Positions 4,677 to 61,438 of a stretch of DNA of 64,000 bases are shown one piece after another. The DNA lies in the NCBI RefSeq assembly GCF_964355755.1, contig NC_092676.1, positions 11,323,888 through 11,387,887 of the forward strand, in the 5' to 3' direction. The stretch comes from Antedon mediterranea (Eukaryota; Animalia; Echinodermata). The position numbers and the translations under genes were made by a program. The stretch's first letter is position 1. Each line of letters starts with the position of its first letter. The notes beneath the pieces are model-generated. The model was not told the origin of the DNA and searched no databases. It was given only the letters and a program-made list of their open reading frames with translations.

Positions 4677-5958
4677 ACTGTATATCTATGTGACTCTGGT
4701 CAATAAACATATTCAAATCATATCTTAAAAGTCATATCCGTCACATGATTTTTTAGGTTCGTCATATCCGTCACGGTTTCATCTCCGTCACATAGATATT
4801 TTATCCTTTTAAATCCTAAAATACTGTATTTCAGTTATGAACTTTATTATGTGGTATAATTGAAATATAAACAATATTCTTCTACTATGTCAATGGTTAG
4901 TAATATTAGTTTAACAGATTTTTGTAAGACATCAGTGACAGTCATACTATTTTTGGAAAATTTTTTTTTTTTTGAAAAGTAAATGGTTTTGAACGTATAA
5001 CATCATACTAATAAATGTTAAATTAAAGCAATCATTTTTTCATTAATCGAGAAAAAAATACTGTATCGTATCAAATAATTAATAATGGAAATAATTTTAT
5101 AATTCCTAACCCATTATTTTTTCTATCTCTGTAGCCTATCCATAAATGTGACGGATATGACAGCAACATGGAACCATGTATTTAAAAATACAAATAAAAT
5201 ATGAAATATATAATAGAAGATTGCGCCAAACATACATATGCTTGCCAATAAACTTTTAAAATTAAAAAGTTTTAAAATCGATTTTTTATAAACCTAAAAT
5301 TACACACTTACTGAAGAATGACCCAGATGCCAGATTTGACCACTATGCCTACTTGCAAATGCTGTATATAAAATTAATTATGTATATAGCGCCCTCTGTC
5401 GCATTGACGGACGCTGCCATTGAAAATTATTGCGCAATAATTGGGTTGTCCATAAAAAAAGGTACGCATACTGGCCAAACCTACCCAACCCGTATAGATA
5501 CGAAACTGCATTAGCACCAGTTGGCCTACCTTAACCTTGTCCTTGCATCAGCAGGTTGTCTGCTGAGAATCAATGGAAATGAGGTTTTTACAGCACGTCT
5601 ACCTCTACCAACAATAGGAAAGCTTGCCATGCCCATTCCATGTGTTGTACCCGTACTCAAATCGTAGTAGTTTTGACAACCAAAAAAGCACGTTTTCTGC
5701 GCTCTCTCTCTCTCTCCCTCAGTCTCAATCAATCCTTCCTTACCATGTCCAAATAAAAACAAAATGCTCAGTTCCAGCTCAATCTGAAATTATAGTACTG
5801 TATGCCTAGTTCCCTAATAAATAGGTCTATTATACGTGTTTATAATGATTTCCTGGAAAACAATTTTCACAGAGTCTAAAAAATCTCAGTCGTCCAGGGC
5901 ACTTATTTAGTTTACGAATGCGCACTTAATTCATGGGATAGATGGACCGAAACAAAGA

Positions 5959-8470
5959 GGTGTCTGATCATTTCGGCCGCCAGTCATTTCGGCCGCCGGT
6001 TATGGAATTGCCAAATTCATGAACCGCCAAAAAGGACAAAATATGTATTGTTCATTTCGGCCGCCAGAATTGTAATTATTCTTGAATATGTATGACACGC
6101 CATGTGTGTTAAAATGGTATTAAGCCGAATCGGCGGTCAGAAACAGCAGCGATATTTATGGCAGGATTGCCCGCTTTTCGATACATTAAAAACAATCTCA
6201 TTTGCCGACTGATACGTAGCCCTACACCAGTTTTACTTAAAAATATATAGGCCCGGTAGCTTTTATTTTATATAGATAAAACGTCATCGTTTACATAAAA
6301 GGGGGAATGACGGATTTTGTAGTTTAGCGGCAGCGCGTGCATGGCACGCGTACAGCTCAATACGGCCGTTTCATCAGCAGCCAAAACAAAATATCGGTAA
6401 ATTTTTCAACCAATAAAGGTGCGCATGATCAGTCATTACCAAACAACCAGATGCCCAATCACATTGCAACAATTTGTCCTTCACGTCAAAGGTTAAAAAT
6501 TATCGCATTTATCCGATAATTATCTAATTTAAATGACAAAAAAAAGAATATCCGCGTATTTGATCGAACCCGCCAGTGGTGGCGCCAGCGGGGGGAAAAG
6601 GAAGCGGTTGGCCCGAACCATAAAACAGGGTCTGGTCACGTTTCTTTTCGCGCATAAATCTCGATCTAGGGTAGGTGGGTGAATGGGGTGGCTAGCCACC
6701 TCCCTCTTAATTCTAAAGGGGAAAAAAAAGATGCACCAAACCCGTGACCGTCGCTAGACGCGGATTTGACGCACTTGACTCTTTTAATTAAGTAGGCTAG
6801 AGCTATAGTTGTGTAAATAGGCCTACATAGTGAAAGAACTATTTATGAATTCAAGAGTTTAAAAAGAAAACGCAATTTAAAATCTTCGGAAAATACCCAC
6901 AACTGAGTTATTTTCAAAACACATGCACTCCCACTACCAGCATCACGTTGTCTTAGCTCGCTCCTCGTGTGAATGCTGACGTCATCACTCTCCAAAAATA
7001 CACCATTTTCCGCCCTGGTCCGTGTGCAAGCGTTAGCGTGGACCTGTATATTTACACCCCTGTACAGAGTAGAGTGTAATATCGTGAACTTTTTTCTCGC
7101 GTATGAAGGATTTTTATATAATGGTATGCAGTATAAACGATAAAAAAAACGATAAACATGATGTTCTTTTATTATTATTTCATAGGCATAAAAACATGAA
7201 ATGTCTTGTTCTATGTACACGGCCGAAAAAACGGCATTTTATTGATTTGTGTTATAGACACGGCGATTACGGCAATCATCATTGTATACGGTACTAAATT
7301 ACATTACGTTATTCACCCGGCTATAGGGTATATATCTGAGGTTAACAGACCACCAAAGCACAGTCGTACACTAAACACATGCACTATCGAGGCATTTTCG
7401 GATCAAAGTTTATTATTAGTTCGTCGAAAAAGATCCGTATTAGAGTATTTAGGAAAGATTTATTTAAATTTACATTATTATGTGACATTGTTATTAAATG
7501 TAATGGAAACAGTTGCTCTAGCCTATTAAACAGTGTGTAAGCATCTATTTTTTCAAAATTTTCTGAGGCTCGGGAGGGGGTCCTCCCAAACCCACCCCCG
7601 CTTTCGCGCGTACGGCCCCCGTGGGGGAATTCGGCCCCCCTGTCGGGGAATTCGCCCCCCCCCCCCCCCCCCGTCGGAGAAATCCTGGCGCCACCACTGG
7701 AACCCGCTTACTTGGATATTTGGACAAACAAATAAACAATGCATCGCGCGTCATCGCATGTTTATTGAAATTTAATATGAAGTGTGCAAAAAGCAAAAAA
7801 ACATTATAAAAAAAAAGATACACCTACTTGTTTAGCGCATAGTAACTGCTTAGCGTCGGATGTTTAGCCTGCCTTTGTTTTTTTAATATATTTATATATT
7901 TTATGACGAAATGCGTCCGACAATGACAAGAAAAATATGTACGGTTATCGTTAGCGGCGGTTTCAAAGATCATTGTTTAATGAGCCTTGTAAAACGCATC
8001 CTATGGCATTTTGTTTGGAATAGAAATGAAACTTCCCTTATCGCAAAGCTATCATTTTTTTAATAAGAAGGAGGTGATGCTGAAGTTGTTTTATGTGCCA
8101 GTCAAAAACACTTTTATTCGTATGTTTTACATTTATTATATTCATAAAGAAACACATTTTTACAAAGCACACGCATCTTCGGGACCTGTAAAATAACAAA
8201 AAAATAAACATTTAATCAATATTCATTTGGACCAAAATATTCAGACGGTAAAATAATATAACTTTAAATCTACGGCAAAAAAAAATGTATTTACATTGCA
8301 CAACTGATCTCTGGTTTAAATGACTATAGTTGTGGCGTTCCATAGACTTGGTAAAGTTATTTTTTTCACTGTAATACTGTACAGTTATTTCTGGCTATTT
8401 CAATTTGGCGCGCCATACTTGGCGGCCGAAATGATTATGCCATATTTTGTCCTTTTTGGAGTTTGGAGAC
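5959..8470. mobile_element. Degenerate TIR element with CATTTCGGCCGCC repeats, right end eroded
   Basis: 5969-6067 CATTTCGGCCGCC repeats and AAAAAGGACAAAATATG are mirrored at 8420-8458; no TSD found. Confidence 0.4.
6574..7699. mobile_element. hAT MITE
   Basis: 15-bp TIR CAGTGGTGGCGCCAG / CTGGCGCCACCACTG; 8-bp TSD GAACCCGC at 6566-6573 and 7700-7707. Confidence 0.85.
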
Positions 8471-10915
8471 TGCACTGTGACCAACAAAGATAGTGTAGTA
8501 GGAAGATGTTACACTTCCTATTCGATCAATGCAAATAAAAGCGAGACAACATGGAGCTAAATTTAAAGGGCGCCTCGCACGTCGAGTAGGGATACGGAAG
8601 GTTATTGTATAGGAAATAGGCTGTATAACAGAAGAATAAAATGACTGTAAAATTAAGATTTAATACGAATTAACATATAAAATGTACTGTTATCTTTATA
8701 GAAAGTGCAAATGAATCATATTTTTATGTTTTGGAATACAAATTTGTGTTTCAATTACCTGGAGTTGTTTAGGTACCTGGAATATCTACCATATTTTATT
8801 TCTTTTATTTTAATGTTTTTATTTGCAAATCAACTGAACTTTTTTAAAATTATTATTTACATTTTATTGTTTATCATTGGACAGAGATAGAGAATTTAAT
8901 ACCTAGCTTTAGAAACACTTCTTCATCAGAGTGAATACATATATTAGGGCCTATATTAGTGGTAATAATAATAGGCCTACAATGTGTATGCCTATAATAA
9001 TCGATTACGTATGGCCGGTTTATTTCTAAATGGGTAAACCCTAAAAGAACATATATAGTGAGGCATGTGTAATCAATTAATCAATATTTATTGTAATCAA
9101 TAATATTATACAAATAGTCGATCTGTCCATAGGGGGAAACATATACAATGAATACGGTACCAGCCTATTATTGGAATTTAGGACTACGAGTATGTTTTTT
9201 TACTGAAAAAAAACCAATTATTGTTAATTATCTATTAATTTTAATAATTTAATAATAACTAATTATTTTATGCTTGTAACACTCCGAACTTTCATGCATT
9301 CATCGTAATTTTATATGCCATGATTATGTAATGCCTAACAATAACATTATTGATAATATTATTTTAAGCCGATGAGTTCATTATTGGTAAGGTATATCAA
9401 GGAAAAAATATCCGTGGGGAGGCCTACTTTACCCACTTTTATTATACGATTCCAGGACGATTCGGCCCGGGACTATTCGGCCCACTTTTAGTGGGACGTT
9501 TCGGCCCAAAAGTGGGCCAAAACGTCCCACTTTGCGGGTCGAATCGTCGAAAAAACAAATGATTGTTAATTATCACGTATGTTTTCCCCTGAAATGCAGT
9601 ACTGCGCGTGCGCAACGTACGCTCTGGTGTACGCGCGACTGTGTTTTTAAAAGGACGAGGTGCGCACAACGGATGAAAACTGCTGATTTTTAAACCTACA
9701 CACGTCACTTTTAAAACGGTCATACGACTTTTATTTTAGAATAAATAAAATATTTTATCAAATAGGTCAAAAAATATCTAAAAATCAAAAAAATATTTTA
9801 TATTTATGATAGAATATTATTCTCTTAAAGATTTGCATTTTAGTGACGTCATAATTATTATTTTTATACGTTTTACTACACCAGCAATATTTTAAAAAAT
9901 AAAGTTTTTGAAGAGGTCATAGTATCTCATACATATTCATAAAGCGTTCAACGACGAAAATTACCACATGGGTTTGTTGAGCCTATTCGTGGTTTTGCCA
10001 TGTGATGGGTGGAAGTTGTGGCCATTTTCAAGGTTTACATTTTTTTTCAGCGAAAATATGCCTACGTAATGTATGCTTGACAACGTTGTATCATAGAGGT
10101 GAGTTTCTGTTGCATTTTGGAATAAATAATAAGGATATAGGCTTATTTATAGTCAACAACTATTTGAAATTGAAGCCACATGGTCGACGATATCGCCCAT
10201 GCTTGAAAATAATTTGAGTAAATAATTACATTTTATGGAGAAAAATAGTAGAAATTCATATAATATATAACATTTCTACTTTCCAAAATGTGTCAAATAA
10301 GTATTTAATGATAATTTATGCATTTCGGATCTTCTAAATTTTATTTTTTTCATTTATTTGATTTTTTAAATTAAATTGGTTTTATTACTAACCCTATTTT
10401 AAATGGTACGTTCCATGCGGCACTAACGCGCATGCGTACCTTCGGTTAAAAAGGCAACTTGGACTGTACCATTTTGTAGAAAGGTAATTTTATAAATGTA
10501 ATTTATTTTGCTTATTATTATTGTCGTTTAAAATTGTTCTTGTATTTTTTTTTTTCTAGTAGTGGACCAAATAAAATTTCTTGTATCTTCTACTACTAGT
10601 ACTACTACCCTAGTGACAACCCGTCAACCGATTCAGTTCCAAACCAATACAATCATTCACGAAAACACCACCTCAAGAGGAATATTTGTTGCCACAGACA
10701 CTTACCTTTATTTTAGTGATGTTAATAAAGAGGCTGCAGTGAGGGTTGCCTAGGTATAGTACTAGGATTTAGCAGCTATTGTCGAATTATATCTATTGTG
10801 TAAGTGGTTGAACTGCATTTATTCAGTAGTAGTAGTAGTAGTAGTACAGTACATTGTATTGTTGTGAACACATAATAAATACACAGTATTGCTTAACAAT
10901 CTCTTTTGGTTTTTG

Positions 10916-11023
10916 GGTAGCCCTGAAAAGGGCTGTTTGGTTTGAGATTGTTTGCGGTTTGTGGTAGCCCTGAAAAGGGCTGTTTGGTTTGAGGTAGCCC
11001 TGAAAAGGGCTGTTTGGTTTGAG
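10916..11023. repeat. Three ~30-bp repeats, each containing an AGCCCT-GAAA-AGGGCT hairpin, just 3' of the RAG1-like stop codon
   Basis: GGTAGCCCTGAAAAGGGCTGTTTGGTTTGA at 10916, 10963 and 10993. Confidence 0.9.
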
Positions 11024-11049
11024 TTTTTTTTGTTTTTTTGTTTTTTTTT

Positions 11050-14000
11050 TTAGGGTTTGGCTGCCAACATGGATGGCGATGTCTTCACCCAATGTTCCTT
11101 CATTGCACTGGTCAGAATACCAAGGTCATCGTTGAATCCACGGATGTTGGACTTGAGGGTGTTGAGCTGAGCGTGCATGCTCTCCCCTCCCTGCTCTCCA
11201 TGGAATCCCAATCCAAACTTCCATCTTTTTATCCAATCAGACACATGCTCTTCCAGAATGTGCATCTTGGGAGGCTCTGTTTCTTGAAAGTGTTTCCGAA
11301 AGAACTGCACATAATCTTCAATGTCTGATTCTTTAGAGACAAAAAAAAAAAAGTAATAGACAGACAGGCTAGACAGACAGGCTAGACAGACAGGCTAGAT
11401 AGACAGGCTAGATAGACAGACATGCTAGACAAACAGACAGACAGGCAGGCTAGACAGCCAGGCAAATTTAACTCAATATATTTACAAAAATATTGTTGGT
11501 GATGAAAGAAACTCATCGAAGAATTTAGTGGAGCAGCTGAAGTTGAGATTTTAGTAGAAAAATAATAAGTATTGATTTTTTTTACCAAGCTTCAATATCA
11601 TCTCCTCTGTGAAAAATGAGGCACAATTGTATTGCCTGTGGCAGATCCCAAACAAATTAAATAATCTTCCGTATTTTGTTGTGACACTGACAACATTTTC
11701 TTCAATTTCTGGACAAAGTTCTGTTGCAGTCTTGCATATCTTTGTCATTAGTGTTTTGATATTTTCAGGCTAAAAGTAAATAATTCAATGATAAAATGAA
11801 TAGTATAGTATAAAAGTCAAATGACAATGACATTAATATAATTATACAGTATAACATAAATGAAATACCTTGCAGCACTTATGGATGTGGTTACCCACAA
11901 ACGATTTGCCGTGATATGCCTGTCTGTTTACCCTGAAAGATTTTAGCACATCATCAAGTTTTGCCACCAAAGGCCCTTTTCTTACTTCAGGTAAGTCATT
12001 TGAAATATGGACTGCTTCAGCTCTCTAAAACCAATAAATAAATTGTTAAAAAATAAAATAATTCTAAGGAAAAATGCCACCTGTATAGAAATGTTTTCTA
12101 ATTGTCTGATTTAAACTTACAACTTGTGCCTCTTGTGCCTCTTGGCTTTGAATCTCGCTAATTATACTCTCAGTTGTTCCACTGGTGTCACCCAATAGCA
12201 TAAAGACACTTAAGTAATCTTTAAGTTGGTCTATTCCATTGCATATGTCTTCTGCCTTGTTTTCTAGGTCTTTGATTTGATTTGACATGGCAACGTGCTT
12301 TAAGAATGTGGGGATATTGGTAGGAGTTTCGAGACTGTTTTGAAGCAATGTACTATCAGTAGACTTTAAAATGATGTCGTCCAGTTGCTGGCAAGCTGCC
12401 TCCAGGCTGTTGAAGTGTTTCAAATATAAGCCTAGGCTTATATGTAAGCCAGGAGGACATACCTATTTAAAAAAGTGAGGGAGCAAAATAATTACCTTGT
12501 TTTATGAAATTTAAGAGTCATGTAAGCTTTTAGAAAATAATGTTTTAATACCTACATGGTCAATGGGAACTTGTATCAAAGGTCTGGCAATTACATTATT
12601 GTAGTTCTTTGCTTTTGAAATATTACCACCAGCCTCTCTGAACCTGTCCAAGTCTTTCTTCATAGTGTCCAATGTCCTTGGGAGTTGGGATTTGTGTTTT
12701 TTGGTTGCATGGCACCACAAGCAGTAATGTCGTCCTTGAAAACAAAATTTAATACACATTTGCTTTCAAATATCCATCATTTATTAATTGCTAATAATTG
12801 CAGTACTGTACCTGTAATACAAATATTGTTTGTTTACCGTTTGCACCCGTTAGGCCATATATACGAGCCAAATACTCGTAGTCACCGAATATGAAAACTT
12901 TGACTTGTTTTCCCCTATTAAGAAAAATGAAGCCAGTTAATAATTTGTCTTAATTTACACAAATATATTTGTAAAATTTTGTGCAATATTTTACTTTTAC
13001 AGATAAATGGTATATTTACCTTAATGAGGAATTTTGCAACTCTTCGAGTTGAGGCAAGATATCCTTGAGGCCAGTTCTTAAATTAAAACTGGAATCGGTG
13101 GCCTCAAAGCAATTGATGATGATTGTATTATTTTGGGCATTGGGGCGTGGTACATGGCAAAGCTGAAGCATCTGCTTGAAATTTCCACCACCCTTATCCC
13201 CTCCGATCTTTACCCACATCTCATCTGATGGGATGTGGCCATCGTGCCATGTTAGAAGATTTAATCTGTAAAAGGTATTGATATTTATTTGATTCGTTTT
13301 TTAAAATTCAGTAATTAAATTAAATCTGTTAATGAAAGCAAATAAAAAACCTACTTTTCTAGTTCATCATATTGCTGGCAGATTTTTTTGTTGAGACTTG
13401 CAACAGAAACACATGCAGTTTTTTTGATGATTGTATCCCCTGTGTCGTTGCAGGAATGTGCCATAGGAACGTATTCAGCAATGATGTTGTCGTCAATGAT
13501 GATGTTTTTTTGCTGCCTCATTTTTGCCTCGCATTCTGTGCTGACACCATATTTTTTTAGCCAGCTTTTAAAAAAAAATAAAATATTAAAAACTATGTTG
13601 AGGGTGTTCGATTCAGATACTGCAGAATGTTGATTTGTTATTTACCATTTCAGTTCTCTGTTTTTTTTCCATGTTAGGCCAAGATTGGTTTTTAAAGATA
13701 GCAAATCACCAGTTGGAAGACGTATCGGACTTTTAAATTGAGAAAACTCATCATCTCTTTGAGCTTCTGAATCGCCTCCACTTACTGCCGACCGTACATC
13801 ATCAATGAATTTACTTCTGTTGTGAACAGTTCTCCAGCCTGCATCAGATGAGCTTTTTCGTGGTATCGGCATCGCCATTGTTTTTAGTTTCTGGTTTTTA
13901 AAAAAGGTAATACATTTCTATAGTTGGTGTTATTTTTAGCAATAAAATTAAGTAAAGTTGTTATTTTTTATTAAATTTAAGTTTTTTGTAATAATTAACA

Positions 14001-14977
14001 ATTTGATTATACAGTAATAACCATTAAAAAAGTACCTTTCCTTTAACACTAAACTCAGTTGTGTTGTTGTTCGACTGTTTCAATTTTGCTTTTAGGATGT
14101 GTAGACCAACTTCCTCCATCAGTGGCGTTACTGGAGTACCAAGTGGATGGTTTAATATGTCATCTATTTGGTTCGTTTGTTGTAATTGATCACGAGGAGT
14201 GACTGGCGTTGATGTTAAGTTAGTTGGCGATGATAGATAACAGTGGTCTGGCAGGCACACATGGTCACTGATACATTTACATTTCACTACAGTACGACAT
14301 CTTTTACATACAACAGGAACAGACAGATAACATTCAGCAAAGATTGACTGAACATCGTTAATACATGAAAAATGCACAGGTACATTACATACAGAACATT
14401 GGACAGTATCACAATCCATATACAACGGTTGAATACAGGACTTGCACATAACGTGATGGCAAGATGTAACCACAGGAAAAGACGAAACAAGTTTACAAAT
14501 ACCACATTTAAAATTATCAAGTGAACTTGAAACATGAAAGGAGCCAGAAATTGGCTGAAGAAACGGAGGATTTAAGTTTTTAAAATGGGTTTCCACTGCA
14601 ACGGTAGTTTCATGTTTTATTTTATAGCTTTCAGTTGCTAAACCTCTTTTCTTCTTCTTCGGTCTACCGCCACTTTTCTGTGTCTCAAATTGGGCACATG
14701 TACTACAGTCGCCTGTTCTATGATGGGGTTGCCACTGGGTTACATTGCATGGTTTGTTTTTTTGCAAATAACCCATGCACAGCAGACAGAAATACTTGGG
14801 GTGAACACCCTCAATATCTTGCAAAATGTTGATGTTTAAAGCAGTTGAAAATTGTGGTTGAAAGTTGGAACAAGCAAACCGCCTGATTTCCTTGGCTCCT
14901 TGTCTGGAGGCATAAGGTTTTAGCCTGTTCCCACATATACGACACAAGTAATTTAGATTTATAACATGCTTTTCCAT
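11050..14977 (-). CDS. RAG1-like DDE transposase (Chapaev/N-RAG-TP type), 10 exons, 953 aa, apparently intact
   Basis: GT-AG exons 14977-14036, 13890-13646, 13564-13355, 13265-13020, 12914-12838, 12734-12556, 12462-12121, 12024-11869, 11769-11586 and 11330-11050 join in phase (2862 nt, no internal stop). Motifs: H-x7-CRICG...HPKYFCLLC...WQPH...CSTC; RING CGICK...CHHVMCKSC...CSVC; VKIGGDKGG (D1); FGDYEY (D2); CLWC; GLHISLG; FVGNH; KMHILEEH; GEQGGES (E). Confidence 0.88.
11356..11462. repeat. AGAC/CAGGCTAG microsatellite in the last intron of the RAG1-like gene
   Basis: Tandem AGACAGACAGGCT-like units. Confidence 0.8.
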
Positions 14978-15596
14978 ATTCAATTTTAATAAAAGAATGA
15001 CGTTTTACACAGTGAGTTGTAGGCGAGGCCTATACTAATATTAATATATTACTAGTATTATTTTGTAAAAGTACAGGAAATAGTCTTCTACATCGACCTG
15101 AAATAAAAAAAAATTAGAATAGGCTCAACATCAAGAGTGCATTTTAAGTTTTATTTGATAATAAATAAATAGTATCTTAGAATTGAATAATGACAAAAAA
15201 CTCTGAAAATTTAATTATTACAGAAATTATATGCCTTGTATATTAATTAATGTTTTTATAATGATACTTTTGGTAATTTGATATGCCTATACTAAAATCG
15301 TTTTTTATAATTGTTTTTGCTCACTAAAAATTTTGAAAATTTCACTAAGTATGTATTAGTATATTAAAATTAAACATATATTTAAAAAAAAATAAATTAT
15401 GAATTCTTACTGTAGTTATACGACTTTTAATTGTCTTTTTCGTCGGCGCGATTGTTTGTTTATCGTTGCCAAGTAACGAAACTACGAGGGTATGTTTACG
15501 CCCTCTATTGATGAGTGACGTAACCAGGAAGTATCGAATTTCAGGCTTTTGCATAGCGAGCGAACATTATATATAATGTTATACAGTTTTTTTTTT

Positions 15597-16448
15597 AAAC
15601 GTCACAAAATAAACATGAATAATTCATCAGTTAAATTTTCTTGTTCCGTGTGCACCCAAGCGTATAGCAACAAGAAGTGATTACACAAGTGCGGTACGAT
15701 TCTAGGCCTATCTCCGCTGTTGTTGCGGCGTGCGATTTCATAGAAGATAGCGGCGTTTTGTGTGGATTGTCGAAATAATCAGCCTTTAGTTTATGGTGTT
15801 TTTAATATAATTTATTACTAAAGAATTACGTGTTAAAATTATAGTTTCTATTAATACTATTAGGCCTAATTATTAGTCTCTAAACCCATCATGTCTATTC
15901 TAGTAGTAGTAGTAGCTGTGTGGGTGTGTGTGACGTGTGTGTGTTAGGTATGACCAAAGATAGTTATCTTTGGTATGACACAATCCGAGTAATAAGTCAG
16001 CAAAATTAAACAATAAACATTACACAAAAATACATTTTTTATTCTCGTGGGTCAAATCTTCCCATCTCATGTGTTCATATACGCGCATTTTTAAAGTTCC
16101 TTTGAGTACATGCATATTGTTTGATATAAAAATAGCAGAATTAAAAAAATACAGTACACAAATTATACACATTCTTTATTCTTGTGGGTCTAAGCTTTCT
16201 TTGGGCTATGTCCAATGAATTACTACTTAGTTTAATGTCTTGCCTAGCTGTCGATTAGCCTCGACTCGACACATTTTGTGTGAAGAAGAGTGTGCGAGAA
16301 GGCAATGACGTGAATTGACTTAGAATCTAGGCCTACCTGTAAAGTATCGTATCGCAGTTGTGTAATCACTTCTTGTTGCTATACGCTTGGGTGCACACGG
16401 AACAACAAATTTAACAGATGAATTATTCATGTTTATTTTGTGACGTTT
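15597..16448. mobile_element. Foldback/MITE-like segment with ~100-bp inverted repeats
   Basis: 15597-15700 (AAACGTCACAAAATAAACATGAATAATTCATC...GTGATTACACAA) is mirrored at about 16345-16448; no TSD seen. Confidence 0.65.
15948..15979. other. Probable P-superfamily excision footprint
   Basis: GTATGAC + CAAAGATAGTTATCTTTG + GTATGAC: a 7-bp direct repeat around an 18-bp palindrome matching the CAAAGAT termini of the element at 17161-21637. Confidence 0.65.
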
Positions 16449-17554
16449 CATGAGGGGTCCCCAACTTATGTACGAAAAAAAAAATCGCGTCCCAGGGCCG
16501 AATCGTCCCAGGGCCGAATCGTCCCGTTACCTATTTAAAAAAAAAATGTTCTATAGAATAATTATATATATAGAAGTTTTAGAATTCTACGTTAATCTAT
16601 TATAGAAACAGATAATTTCTATACAAATGAATTTACAGATTCTACGGGCCCTAGAGTTTTATAGAAATACTTTATAGAAAATATTGAAATTGCAGAAGAA
16701 TTGCGGTAACGCTTAAATTTATCGGCTTTATGCATTTATAAGCATAAAATAAGCATTTTCCCCCAAACTTTATTTTCAGAGAGACTGTGGGGTAGTACTA
16801 CTAGGGATAGAGATGCAATAAAGCAAACATTTTGAAAACATTGTCGAAAATGATCAAACAAGGTTTTCGAAGTAATAAATTGAATATAAAATTACGTTTT
16901 TTTAGTAATTTATTATATATATTATATCAAGATTTTCAATATCAATAAATACGGATTGTTAAAACACCTTTAAAAACTGGATAAATACCAAAAAAAATGA
17001 ATATGAATTTGGTCTAAAGTGAGACGTTTCGGCCCATAAAGTGGGACGTTTCGGCTCAAAAGCGTAAATGTGTTCAAAAAACATTATTTAATATAAAAAA
17101 TAATAATCTAATATAATACTTTAAGACCACATAAATTACAACACATATTCTTGTCAAAACCAAAGATCGTATAGCGCCACGTAGTGGCGCAAGATATGGA
17201 ACTGACGCTCAAAAAATGATAATTGCATGGGCAGCCATTCCGGCAAGCGATTTTTTTTTCCGTACGAGAGTTCCTCCATCGGTTCGTTTCGGACTCAATC
17301 GACTCTCTTCGGTATTCGGTAAAGTCAGCTCACTGATGCGTGACAACATAATACAATTTACATTTACAAACCGCGAGCTAACTTTCACACAGGCTCTCAT
17401 AATAGTAAAATGAATCTACACTAATACGAGTTTTGATGACATTAATTAATAAATACTAGGCCTACTTAGTAATTACATTAAGAACCCAATAGCATATTGA
17501 AGATATTTAGGTCTACGACCCAATAGTAGGTCGTATCAGATATTATTTTTTGAA

Positions 17555-17603
17555 GTTGAACCATGGAGGTATAACCATGGAGGTATAACCTCCATGGTTG
17601 AAC
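17555..17603. other. Probable P-superfamily excision footprint
   Basis: GTTGAAC + CATGGAGG...CCTCCATG (35 bp) + GTTGAAC. Confidence 0.6.
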
Positions 17604-18515
17604 GACCTTTTGTCACGAACGAGAGGCCCATTTCTTATCGTTTATGGTATTGTTTGTAGCTAGCCCATGCAGTGTATGTTTTTTATACCTTTTAAAATAA
17701 TATTATTAAATTAATATTTATATTGTAAGGTAATGGAAATTTTACGTTAAAGGTGTACGTATTAATTATCCCCAATCTTGAAAAATAAAGATTTCAGACT
17801 TTTAAAATAGGCAATTTTGGAGTTTTAATTAAGTTATAGGCCTACAACTAATATTATTGTTTATTATGTGTATATGTAATTTGGAAAATCATAAAAAATA
17901 CATGCAAAGTAAAAAACATTCAATTACGGTACTGACACGACTGCAATAGTACAAATACATTAAATAAAACACATTTTCCAGGAAGCTTATAATTATATGT
18001 GATACTATCATCTTGTCATGAAGATCGGTTTTCTGTATTCCATATTCTTGATTTTATTTTTTTTATTATGGTTTCTGAAATAAATTTTTTTTTTTAAATT
18101 GTTCATTTTAATTCGAAATTTCCACCGGCCAAGATATCAATAATTATTAAATTAACACAATATTAAACGCTTTATAAGCAAGCATGTGTTTCTATACATT
18201 ACAACTTACAAGAATACATGTTACTAATAGGCCTATAATGTATACAATTTTTCAAATGTTACACTTAAAAACCTGAAGACAATTGTAATTTTCTTGATAA
18301 AAACATCTGTTAGTGTTACTTCTGTACATATAATTCCTAACCTACTAGTACCTACTGCTGTACTTCATTATTAAAATAAAAAATAGTACTGTAGATGGAA
18401 ATGTACTACATTGAATTTGAAGCACACGTACGTAGGGCTAGGCTAGCTAGGCCTTGCTTGTGACGACCAACAAAGTGCTGCTGCTGTATGTGTGTTACTG
18501 TTTGTGAATCTGATG

Positions 18516-22057: not shown

Positions 22058-48493
<26,436 letters not shown>

Positions 48494-57363: not shown

Positions 57364-59701
57364 ATAAACTCAAAAGATTATGCATTACGGCTGATTTAAT
57401 AGTTTTTAATCGTTTACATAAAACATTTGAGAGTTTTGAAGTAAATATTGTATAATATTGTATAATATATCAAATGTAAATACTGAACTATTTGATCCAT
57501 AGATAGTTGGCAAGAAGAATCCAGTATCATTACAGTGTGATATAATCAAATTTATAAATGACGCTGTCACAAATCATGTAAAAAGAAATCCAATAGCCCC
57601 TATTGGTTTTATTATATCGTGTATTCTGTTTAGCTAGTAACAATGGAATATGATGAATGTACAATATTCAGTTATTTAATGCATACAGCCAGTAACCTCG
57701 ATGTCTTTGCTCAATTGTGCTTTTACAGTGTGTCGGTAGTTACACTGCATGTAAAATATTCGACCTGGGTTCAGTGCAATAATCAATACAGTAGTCGATC
57801 CATTGTGGATAAGTAATGATATTTAATTTTGTCCAGTATTATTAATATCTTTTATCAGATATCACTGTATAATGTTAGTACAGTAACAATTTTAAATTTG
57901 ACTTAGGCAGTTATAGTAAAATAATGTGCAATAATCGATACAGTAGTCGATCCATTATGGATAAGTAACGATATTTAATTTGGTCCTGAGTATGCATTTT
58001 ATCAGATATCACTGTATAATGTTAGTACAGTAACAATTTTAAATTTGACTTGGGCAGTTTATAGTAAAATAATGTGCAATAATCGATACAGTAGTCGATC
58101 CATTATGGATAAGTAACGATATTTAATTTGGTCCTGAGTATGTTGCATTTTATCAGATATCACTGTCTAATGTTAGTAGTACAGTAACAATTTTATATTT
58201 GACTAGGGCAGTTATAGTAAAATAATGTGCAGTAATCAATACAGTAGTCGATCCATTGTGGATAAGTAACGATATTTAATTTGGTTCAGTATTATTAATA
58301 TTAATTAATGTTGCCTTTTATCAGATATCACTGCCTAATGTTAGTACAGTAACAATTAAAAATTTGACTTTGTTTGAGTTAAAGTAAAACAATGTGCAGT
58401 AATCGATACAGTAGTCGATCCATTATGGACAAGTAACGATGTTTAAAATGTTGGCAGATTAAGTTATTTGTTGGTTTTTATCAGTCTAATTCACATGAAA
58501 ACGGTTACTTTTTTAAAATTTAAATTGAGTTAAAAATACATTAATAGTGTGCAATCGATAGTCTAATCTATACCTTACCAATTCTCTAAGTGATTATGTT
58601 GAATTCGAACTATTATTTACTTTACTATTATGTTATGTTATGTTAAAAAATGTTGCAAATTTAGATTTCGTTGCCTTTTTTCATATAGACATATCACTAG
58701 TGTCTAGTGTGTAATTAAAACAATATTTAAATGGAGTTATAATAATAATGTACAATAATCGGTACCGGTGTCGATCATTATGAGTGTAATTATTTAGTTT
58801 ATCTGAAAAATATTCTTCAATTATATTATTTTGATCGAAATAATGATTTTGATATAATATTGATTGTTCAAAATGTTACACAAATCTGCTGTTGGTTAGT
58901 TTAAGTGTTTTTGTTGGTGTTATTTATTATTCCAAAATAAAGATATATTTCAATTATAAAATAAAAGTCACACGTTATCGTGAATGTGTTTGTATTATCA
59001 ACATTGTTAATCACGAATGGAGCCTCGGGCATTTGAGCTGCTGTACGTGTACCGGATAAAGTGAAAAAAAAACCATTTTTTTCAAAAATGATTACACACT
59101 TCATGGATAAACCCATTTTGGGCGAGTTCCTAAGAGTTTGATGTTTGATGATTTGGTACAGGAAACAACTGCTTTCTTTATTTATTGTTTTAGCATTCTA
59201 CTGTGTATTTATTGTCAGTCCGAGTCGTCCGTATCACGTATTTCTAACTCAGCTGAACGCCATTAAACGACATACGCGCCGAGTATATAGCCGAATAGGG
59301 GGAAACTGCGGACCTTTAGGGCTCGGCTGCTGTCTGAGCTTATGTACAGGATAAAGTTGCATTGGTGTTTTTGACATCCCCAATATATACTGCTGCCATT
59401 AAAAAAAGATTCAACCTTGTATCGCTTCACATGAATAAACCCATTTGGGCGTGGCCCTAAAATGTTGCTATTAGGATAAAGTTGCTGTCATTGGTGATGT
59501 TATCATTAGTAGCCCACTGCGAATGATATCCAAAAAAGTTTATCCTTGTATCGCTTCACATAAATAAATGCATTTTTACCCCCCTATGTTATGATCCCCA
59601 CAGGCCCTATGTACAGGCTGTGACCCGGCAGCAATGTCGAATATTGCATCTCGCCCTAATACGCACCTAACTACATCATCAAACCTTTTGTATCTTTTCA
59701 C

Positions 59702-61438
59702 ATGAATAAATCTTCCGGGCGCCCGGTCTACAAATCTAACATCTCAAAACAAGAAAGAGTTGCTCTTAATACATTAAAAAAGGACAAAGAAATAATGGTA
59801 ATGGGTGCCGACAAGGGCAAGTGTATTGTCGTTCAAAATAAGAAAGAGTATGAAAGCAAGGTTAAGGAAATGTTAAACGATCATAACACGTATGAAAAGC
59901 TTACCAAAGATCCTACTCCGGGTTACAAACGGAAGTTAGTTGAGATTTTGAAAAGACTAAAAACCGAAAACAAGATCAATGAAAGCCACTACAGGTTACT
60001 CTATCCTACCGCCGAAAATACACCTAGAATGTACTGTACCACCAAGATCCACAAACAGGGAAATCCTATAAGACCGATAGTGGATTACACCGGGTCGATT
60101 GGATATCAAACCTCAAAAGCCCTTGCCGAGATACTCGCCCCGCTCGTAGGTACCACCGAACATCATGTTGTGAACTCCAAATCTCTCGCGGAGGAAATGA
60201 CAGCGATAATGATTGACGATGGGGACATTCTTAATTCTCACGATGTCGTATCCTTGTTCACTAACACCCCTATCGAAAAAGCCTTGGACGTCATTAAAGA
60301 TAGACTGATAAATGACAAAACTCTAAACCAAAGAACTAATTTAAACCCGGACGACGTTATTGCTCTTTTAGAATTTATCTGCACAACAACATATTTCAGC
60401 TTCAGGGGACAAATTTATCGTCAGATATTTGGTGCTGCCATGGGCAGCCCTGTTAGTGCAATCCTGGCCAATCTGTTTATGGAATGGTTAGAGAGAGAAG
60501 CCATCGCTACATCACCTCTCGATTGTAAGCCGAAGCTGTGGCGTCGCTACGTTGATGATGTGTTAGAGATAATTCAAAAAGACAGTACACAAAAACTTAC
60601 TGACCACCTCAACTCCATCGATCCAACGGGCAACATCAAGTTCACGTTTGAGGAAGAAGATCAGGGAAAAATCCCCTTCCTGGACACATTAATCGTCGGG
60701 AAAGAAGATGGGTCACTGAAATTGCTGGTGTACAGGAAAAAGACACATACTGACCAGTACCTGAACTTCCAATCTCAACACCCGCTACACCAAAAGCTAG
60801 GGGTCATCAGAACGCTCATGGATAGAATGGAGAACATAGTTACAGAGGAGGCGGATAAGAAAGAAGAAGAAGTTAAGATCAGGAATGCGCTTAGGAAATG
60901 TGGATACCCCAAATGGACACTGGACAGAGTCAAACAACAAATAAAAAATAAACAACCAAAGCAGAGAAATAAGAACAAAGAGTCGGAGACACCATCAAAG
61001 GGTATGGTTGTTTTACCTTATGTCGAAGGAGTGGCAGAACAAGCTCAAAGGATTTTTAAGAAATATGGTATTTCCACCGCCATGCATCCAACGAACACTC
61101 TTAAAAGCATTCTAGTCCACCCCAAAGACAAGAAGGACATCACCCAAACAAGTGACATTGTTTACGACATTCCTTGCAAAAGTTGCAAGAAATCGTACAT
61201 TGGGGAAACAGGTCGTCAATTTGGAGTAAGACTGAAAGAACACCAAAAATACACTGATACGGTCACCAACCGTAAATACACCCGGGCAGCTAGAAAGGAA
61301 TCAACATCCGAAATCCACAAATCCGCCATCACAGACCATGCAGCGCAAGAAAACCACATCATCGATTGGGAGGGGGCCAACATTCTTGACAGAGACTCAA
61401 CCCATTTAAGCGTAGAATCAGAGAGGCAATCCAAATAA
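59702..61438 (+). CDS. Penelope-like reverse transcriptase plus GIY-YIG endonuclease; 5'-truncated, frameshifted at the 3' end
   Basis: ADKG, KIHK..PIRPIV, DVVSLFT, GAAMGSPVS, RYVDD, IPFLD, YRKKTHTDQYL, IVYDIPCKSCKKSYIGETGR; the native C-terminus (REAIQI, INRDEG) lies in other frames at 61400-61570. Confidence 0.9.
   Translation: MNKSSGRPVYKSNISKQERVALNTLKKDKEIMVMGADKGKCIVVQNKKEYESKVKEMLNDHNTYEKLTKDPTPGYKRKLVEILKRLKTENKINESHYRLLYPTAENTPRMYCTTKIHKQGNPIRPIVDYTGSIGYQTSKALAEILAPLVGTTEHHVVNSKSLAEEMTAIMIDDGDILNSHDVVSLFTNTPIEKALDVIKDRLINDKTLNQRTNLNPDDVIALLEFICTTTYFSFRGQIYRQIFGAAMGSPVSAILANLFMEWLEREAIATSPLDCKPKLWRRYVDDVLEIIQKDSTQKLTDHLNSIDPTGNIKFTFEEEDQGKIPFLDTLIVGKEDGSLKLLVYRKKTHTDQYLNFQSQHPLHQKLGVIRTLMDRMENIVTEEADKKEEEVKIRNALRKCGYPKWTLDRVKQQIKNKQPKQRNKNKESETPSKGMVVLPYVEGVAEQAQRIFKKYGISTAMHPTNTLKSILVHPKDKKDITQTSDIVYDIPCKSCKKSYIGETGRQFGVRLKEHQKYTDTVTNRKYTRAARKESTSEIHKSAITDHAAQENHIIDWEGANILDRDSTHLSVESERQSK

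Follow-up and report, generated by a model that had tools for sequence, protein, structure and literature searches.

The 64,000-nucleotide window of Antedon mediterranea DNA analyzed here (NC_092676.1, positions 11,323,888 to 11,387,887; all coordinates below are those of the window) contains an element of about 6.0 kb that is very probably a full-length, RING-bearing Chapaev DNA transposon. Its ten-exon gene encodes an unbroken 953-amino-acid (aa) DDE transposase of predicted RAG1 fold, which likely moves CAC..GTG-ended elements by cut-and-paste independently of RAG2. The original prediction, made from the sequence alone, had described 11050-14977 as a RAG1-like transposase. This interval is the coding region of a larger feature, the element at 9574-15567; as to the name, the RAG1 fold is supported and Chapaev had been listed as a relative, but every diagnostic tested is that of Chapaev and not of the RAG1-like (RAG1L) proteins.

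Chapaev is indicated by domain matches, hallmark motifs and layout. DUF1280, which is equated with Chapaev and placed in one clade with RAG1 (PMC3985635), is matched by exon 4 (expectation value (E) 2.3e-13) and by 13 of 13 long homologues scanned, while the RAG1 core family (PF12940) has no match in the ten exon frames or in these 13 homologues. The Chapaev hallmarks given in PMC4079192, namely C(2)C, LH and H(4)H motifs, CAC..GTG ends and 3-4-bp duplications, are shared along with DUF1280. The C(2)C and H(3-4)H motifs occur throughout the CMCT group (PMC12730594) and, thus, are not RAG1 markers. Two Chapaev subgroups were reported in 2015 to carry a RING after the Chapa domain (PMC4411706). 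Judged by eye, Chapaev-1/2_NV and Chapaev-1/2_BF (PMC4411706, supplement 5) share a GGRPKK stretch and its spacing with the window protein, and the window N-terminus matches the type I Chapa double zinc finger pattern described in bioRxiv 10.64898/2026.01.24.700457. The features held in common with these named elements are Chapa, GGRPKK, RING, C2H2, a DDE core and the lack of RAG2. The window element differs from the known RING-bearing Chapaevs in belonging to a new family, with nine introns, an intact frame, spliced RNA-like support and one clipped end.

Translation of the minus strand in all three frames, with exons joined at GT-AG sites, recovers the transposase gene as ten exons, 2862 nt and 953 aa with no internal stop. 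The nine GT-AG introns measure 145, 81, 89, 105, 103, 93, 96, 99 and 255 nt in gene order and have a GC content of 24.6%, versus 40.5% in the exons. This contrast, the full-length alignment of a homologue and a spliced contig of sequencing run X5 argue that the gene model is not a product of chance, and the ten-exon, stop-free frame that had been claimed is thereby confirmed. Exon 1 (14036-14977, aa 1-314) encodes the type I Chapa/NZD double finger (aa 4-94), a basic GRPK stretch at aa 104, the RING (aa 158-197) and a C2H2-like finger (aa 224-241). Exon 2 (13646-13890, aa 315-395) encodes a basic helix (aa 322-340) that resembles the nonamer-binding domain (NBD) of RAG1 and has no GRPR/K motif, and is followed by exon 3 (13355-13564, aa 396-465). 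The first catalytic aspartate, D489 (13198-13196), lies in exon 4 (13020-13265, aa 466-547) with the invariant D523 and the DUF1280 match; the second, D559 (12883-12881), lies in exon 5 (12838-12914, aa 548-573). Exon 6 (12556-12734, aa 574-633) provides C578 and C581, exon 7 (12121-12462, aa 634-747) the LH motif and a long insertion that is helical in a proxy model, and exon 8 (11869-12024, aa 748-799) the GNH motif. Exon 9 (11586-11769, aa 800-860) leads to exon 10 (11050-11330, aa 861-953), with H884, H889, E906, the catalytic E910 (11184-11182) and the stop codon, and without a CCGHC tail.

Pieces of the window are present in fifteen sequencing runs of six coded organisms, none recorded as RNA; four runs (X5, X6, X7 and X11) were compared over 5000-18000, with X5 taken as RNA by a guess. 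One X5 contig (contig 13) matches both 10964-11330 and 12121-12462; the two matches are separated by 340 letters, as many as exons 9 and 8 have together (184 + 156), which pins down the acceptor of intron 9 and the donor of intron 7. An alternative intron 7 donor, which would keep the frame and give 965 aa, is ruled out by this contig. Two X5 contig ends fall exactly at 12462 (intron 6 acceptor) and at 14036 (intron 1 donor, where contig 14 stops), as expected where spliced and unspliced forms branch. Just 3' of the stop codon is a 30-bp tandem repeat (10905-11030), at which the X5 transcript contig has 30 gap letters. RNA-like support for the junctions, which had been asked for, is thus found over exons 7-10, and the gene is likely spliced and expressed.

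The motifs listed in the original prediction are all found, and in RAG1 order: H4..CRICG, HP..FC..C (59-67), W.PH (82-85), RING (158-197), PRKSSS (324), D489, D559, CLWC (578-581), LH (639-640), GNH (791), H884/H889 and EQGGES (906-911). The N-terminal double finger has H4, C12, C15, C64, C67, H85, C91 and C94 as its ligands. It is followed by the C3HC4 RING, which the RING Pfam models match in exon 1. Directly after the Chapa domain lies GRPK (aa 104-107, 14657-14668), a motif of the AT-hook type; GRPR/K follows Chapa in 9 of 33 homologues and is confined to this position, whereas in RAG1 it is at the NBD. D489, D559, E910, C578, C581, H884 and H889 are invariant in all homologues with residues there (29 of 29 for C578/C581, 30 of 30 for D559), and R339 of the basic helix is present in 29 of 30. 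The invariant D523 is taken here, presumptively, as a possible match of RAG1's fourth acidic residue. While EQGGES is present as predicted for the catalytic glutamate, the residue that lines up with RAG1 E962 is its second E, E910, in a non-significant stretch of the profile alignment. D489 and D559 are 70 residues apart, a spacing kept in 27 of 33 homologues; the others comprise two gene models with 119 (a 49-residue insert at the intron 4 site), one with 74 and three that are truncated.

A HMMER search with exon 10 over 1.84 billion representative sequences returned 864 proteins at E <=0.001, and the best 150 of the 864 were used. The top match among these 150, here P0001, is an uncharacterised 951-aa Antedon mediterranea protein that aligns to residues 1-953 of the joined model at 47% identity; next to the junctions, no more than one gap column is specific to these two sequences. 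The nearest proteins, 47% and 37% identical, are both unannotated and from Antedon mediterranea, and near-identical Antedon proteins occur under three accessions. Protein searches by word index, with exons 4 and 1 as queries, gave no match, which is weak evidence. In a tree of the core built from 20 proteins, left after 14 near-duplicate or truncated rows were removed from 34 long ones, the window protein and two Antedon proteins form a group (98/96) within a clade that also has members from sea cucumber and sea urchin (99/98).

From end to end, the protein is colinear with RAG1. A 19-sequence N-terminal profile finds residues 101-442 of mouse RAG1 (E 1.2e-29) and 21WB, an NZD structure (E 3e-14), and exon 1 matches Pfam RAG1_imp_bd (E 3.4e-8), in agreement with the RAG1-type N-terminal fingers and RING that had been proposed. 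An 18-residue gap in the window family falls where RAG1 has an extra helix, the vertebrate H2 insertion of the NZD. The nearest Atlas clusters of exon 1 are vertebrate RAG1 fragments, and those of exon 10 are unnamed eukaryotic proteins, not RAG1, with recognition just below threshold. The structural model of exon 1 matches 1RMD, the dimerisation domain of RAG1, at Z 8.1, level with TRAF6 and LNX2; 21WB is absent from the fold-search listings of this model, which RING structures fill, and its absence is no evidence against the likeness.

For the core, a predicted model of P0001 (pLDDT 80) serves as proxy. It matches RAG1 at Z 27-29 (root-mean-square deviation 3.6-4.4 over about 450 residues, 13-14% identity), BbRAG1L at Z 25.6, HzTransib at Z 25.1 (deviation 3.6 over 397 residues) and the P element at Z 11.8, an order that Foldseek reproduces. 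The suggested comparison of the core with the RAG1/Transib RNase H fold, thus, gives an alignment at Z 25-29 for this proxy, and the core is predicted to be an RNase H fold with a zinc-binding helical insertion, of the RAG1/Transib fold group (CMCT). Several of the fold alignments begin at model residue 311-315 versus RAG1 390-395, which in the model puts the basic helix (322-340) in register with the start of the RAG1 NBD, at high deviation. The helix claimed at the NBD position is, thus, supported in its placement by this proxy, but it is without GRPR/K. By sequence the core is remote: structural alignments of the proxy give 10-14% identity to RAG1, BbRAG1L and HzTransib, single-exon searches of solved structures with exons 4 and 10 gave no RAG1 or Transib match, and core profiles reach BbRAG1L at E 0.74 at best and otherwise nothing relevant.

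Such likeness could be read as a true RAG1-like gene, either a RAG1L or the hypothetical TransibVDJ, that lost its RAG2-like (RAG2L) partner. The colinearity with all of RAG1, the N-terminal profile, the vertebrate RAG1 clusters nearest to exon 1 and the RAG1 cores as top fold matches speak for this reading, yet it is very improbable and already largely refuted. RAG1L cores are >30% identical to RAG1 (PMC4411706), a level not reached by the 12-14% of the proxy structural alignments. The catalytic aspartates are 70 residues apart versus 108 in RAG1, the RAG1 core Pfam family is unmatched, and the family profiles meet BbRAG1L at E 0.74 or not at all. The CCGHC C-terminal tail, a RAG1L feature (PMC10462144), occurs in 0 of 34 proteins, GRPR/K is missing from the NBD position, and the duplications of the relatives are of 4 bp, not the 5 bp of target that Transib and RAGL duplicate (PMC8355894, PMC9435367). 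A RAG2L was looked for inside the element, where the longest stop-to-stop frames are of 78 aa (1476 bases 3' of the gene) and 73 aa (590 bases 5'), and neither of the two longest frames on the plus strand of the 3' side gave a Pfam match; with no frame above 78 aa for a RAG2L, the element is RAG2-less, as had been stated.

Compared one by one, the known systems diverge from the Chapaev element on separate points. Vertebrate RAG1 (PDB 6OEP, 6V0V, 9JPU, 1RMD, 21WB) shares the order of NZD, RING, zinc finger, NBD-like helix and RNase H core, and its H937, H942 and E962 line up with H884, H889 and E910. It differs in core sequence (12-14% identity) and in the distance of 108 between aspartates, and has a GRPR at the NBD and a RAG2 partner; the window protein has neither, but is enclosed by transposon ends. 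The RAGL/ProtoRAG elements (BbRAG1L, PDB 6B40; RAGL-A, PMC10462144; AanRAGL, PMC9435367) share CAC-starting ends, the fold (Z 25.6) and, in many members, N-terminal cysteine motifs and a RING. By contrast, they have RAG2L, the CCGHC tail and a 5-bp duplication, where the window family lacks the first two and duplicates 4 bp, at 13-14% identity. Transib (HzTransib, PDB 6PQX) is likewise a single-gene element with the core fold and CAC..GTG ends; it is without Chapa/NZD and RING, has 99 residues between the aspartates (108 in RAG1; PMC6941560), duplicates 5 bp and is 10-11% identical to the window family. A recent chimera, in which a RAG1-type N-terminus of the N-RAG-TP kind was joined to an unrelated core, would account for an N-terminus that matches RAG1 by sequence and a core that does not. 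This is scarcely credible, as the Chapa, RING and core layout runs through crinoid, hemichordate and unnamed-source homologues and the published Chapaevs, and the core has the RAG1 fold by predicted structure.

The ends of the Chapaev element were located through read matching and relatives. A scan for paired CAC..GTG ends around the gene found none, because one end is clipped. At the 3' end of the gene is an intact terminal inverted repeat, CACGTATGTTTTCC (9574-9587, plus strand), which follows the end pattern of the relatives; their 3' end pattern has one match in the 64 kb, at 9574, with 0.04 expected. It is preceded by TTAT (9570-9573, plus strand), a candidate target-site duplication identified from the sequence and from the 4-bp duplications of the relatives. 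At the 5' end of the gene, a remnant of the repeat retains the inner five bases (15563-15567, minus strand), with the outer 5-6 bases missing, and TTAT at 15567-15570 (plus strand) is the right-hand candidate duplication, identified from the sequence. X6, X7 and X11 all depart from the window sequence at 15567, and beyond this point X7 has five bases, absent from the window, with which the inverted match to the 9574 end extends to 10 bp. The 9574 end, the completion in X7 and TTAT on both sides thus define the element as 9574-15567 (gene strand minus; end sequence CACGTATGTT) with one clipped end. Two loose-end motifs of run X7 have no other occurrence in the window.

Further structure is seen inside and just outside these ends. 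The word CCTGAAAT occurs at 9588-9595 (plus strand), 4 nt inside the 10-bp end, and at 15538-15545 (minus strand), 17 nt inside the place where the 10-bp end would stop; both are leads only. The pairing has a shuffle frequency of 0.9-1.7% and was found after the fact, and the same bipartite-end test in one relative, L003, gives 0.19, with the right end of L003 one base off. RAGL ends are bipartite and unequal (PMC9435367); from a shared 8-mer at unequal distances, the idea of bipartite ends in Chapaev is a weak one. X6, X7 and X11 differ from the window at 10145 and at 10538-10560, with extra or other sequence in the 3' region, so that related copies vary in structure at these points. A small element with 107-bp inverted arms (94%) occupies 15597-16448, 30 bases beyond the clipped end, and is very deep in X5; its insertion may be linked to the damage at that end.

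A metagenome scan for relatives returned seven loci. L001-L004 are copies of one 4.8-kb relative, with bodies 98-99% identical and different flanks; the three with both ends (L002-L004) start CACG..TGTT and end AACA..CGTG, with one changed base in one of them, and all three have exact 4-bp target-site duplications. For the window element, X5 contig 11 matches up to 9574 and then continues with 26 other letters, and is a second insertion site with another flank. The depth of the element body in X7, about 2,500-2,700 versus 30 and 53 on two neighbouring contigs, suggests strong amplification. A recently active transposon, one of the alternatives first offered, fits the ends, the duplication, the second X5 flank and the amplified near-identical copies in a related organism. 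Horizontal transfer is not claimed, and the thin flank cover in X6 and X11 is explicable by low host depth. L005 and L006 represent a relative with coding pieces on both strands, which suggests an internal inversion; their ends were searched for and not found.

The other alternative first offered, a domesticated recombinase-like gene, is unsupported. Under it, the clipped end would have immobilised the copy, and the host would have taken it over, or be taking it over, as a zinc-finger/RING nuclease gene that is expressed. In its favour are an intact frame and spliced, RNA-like sequence in a copy with damage at one end; echinoderm RAGL loci without ends have also been proposed as domesticated (PMC10462144). 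It is quite unlikely in view of the other end and candidate duplication, which are still readable, the second flank in X5, and the introns and untranslated regions, which are about 1-2% diverged from end-bearing copies in other organisms. Judged by eye, L007 has eight intron sites in common with the window gene (intron 7 lies outside the comparison), and L003, which has ends and a duplication, has three exact sites and one approximate, without intron 6. Intron richness is ancestral in mobile Chapaev members and, being common to mobile relatives, is no sign of domestication.

All five indels listed within the gene lie in introns (p about 0.0015), and in the X7 contigs over 13854-15567 and 12516-13108 the listed non-coding indels account for all gap letters. 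An unbroken frame, with the indels listed confined to introns, suggests that the enzyme was recently under selection. Set against this is a reading in which the high depth reflects passive amplification within a larger repeat, and the Chapaev family itself has stopped transposing in this host group. Both the deep X7 contig and an X6 contig continue 41-42 letters beyond 15567, 9579-10174 is shallow in X7, and short inverted repeats of another family lie on both sides of the element. That reading is rather unlikely, as X5 has another flank at 9574, assemblers can extend contigs into one flank, and the frame and indels hint at recent selection.

Several points weigh against the Chapaev transposon reading given here. 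The depth in X7 is no copy number, and the deep X7 contig extends 36 letters past the inverted-repeat match, which would fit amplification within a larger repeat as well as separate transposition events. The RNA status of X5 is guessed, and among the rows listed there is no junction support for introns 2-5. The intron-only pattern is weakened by being that of the indels listed, and the right duplication, four AT bases in AT-rich DNA, is weak by itself. The core model is that of a 47% identical proxy and not of the window protein, and the core tree contains family members without names, with no RAG1, RAG1L, Transib or named Chapaev included.

The proposed mechanism follows the predicted fold and the published chemistry of RAG1 and HzTransib, both of which cut and paste with hairpins on the flanks (PMC6941560). 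A dimer would bind both element ends, with D489, D559 and E910 holding the metals and C578, C581, H884 and H889 binding zinc. Cleavage would leave the flanks as hairpins, and a 4-base stagger at insertion would account for the 4-bp duplication, the whole proceeding as cut-and-paste without a RAG2 partner. The terminal CAC bases are the cleavage site of such enzymes. As the outer bases of one end are gone, the window copy is likely immobile and fixed in place, but it could still supply enzyme in trans to complete copies elsewhere.

Other features of the window surround the Chapaev element. Short GC-rich repeats of one family lie inverted on its two sides (9455-9548, 16488-16525 and 17015-17062), and the element may lie inside another small transposon. 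At 6022-8464, 45-bp inverted arms stand 2.35 kb apart, and in an X6 contig 6162 is connected to 8071 through 52 letters. An intronless 833-aa frame (24343-26844, minus strand) has a weak DDE match (PF07592, E 0.0067); together with a 262-aa frame (27545-28333, minus strand) it is enclosed by 37-bp inverted arms (23957-23993 and 28642-28678), and 23957-28678 is possibly an intact two-gene DNA transposon. Four overlapping frames of 119-173 aa (36085-37593, minus strand) have the look of a frameshifted transposase; the two of them that were scanned gave no useful Pfam match. A 28-aa stretch (22059-22142, plus strand) is presumably like the first coding exon of MEAF6 and has no Pfam match, and a 592-aa frame (59660-61438, plus strand) is taken to resemble a Penelope-type reverse transcriptase with a GIY-YIG motif.

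PMC4411706 and bioRxiv 10.64898/2026.01.24.700457 already describe the family, how its proteins are built and how it relates to RAG1; what is new is an intact Chapaev member at this locus, not the kind. The bearing on the origin of V(D)J recombination claimed in the original prediction holds in that Chapaev serves as outgroup, but PMC4411706 already used the layout for that argument. With architecture and outgroup use published in 2015, the element alone leaves the account of RAG origins unchanged. An alternative origin of RAG1 by fusion of Transib with N-RAG-TP has been put forward (PMC8355894); the whole-length colinearity of a Chapaev with RAG1 would fit better with the older common-ancestor account. 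A bolder proposal, which is unlikely, is that RING-bearing Chapaev enzymes are living counterparts, in a single subunit, of full-length RAG1, in which the layout with an NBD-like arm predates RAG2 and unequal bipartite ends (the 10-bp tip plus CCTGAAAT at 4 and 17 bases) are paired like the RAG 12/23 signals. If this were true, the asymmetric recognition of ends would predate the pairing of RAG1 with RAG2 and could be tested with one protein.

Chapaev is the sole transposase group reported with the N-terminal finger of RAG1, and according to bioRxiv 10.64898/2026.01.24.700457 the Chapa domain lacks experimental tests in Chapaev systems. A literature search, with Repbase outside its scope, found no Chapaev transposition assay and no paper on a crinoid Chapaev. 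With its intact gene, spliced support and defined ends, the Antedon element is a candidate with which a Chapaev enzyme could be assayed biochemically for the first time, and with which to ask what roles the NZD, RING and NBD-like parts have in a RAG2-free transposase.

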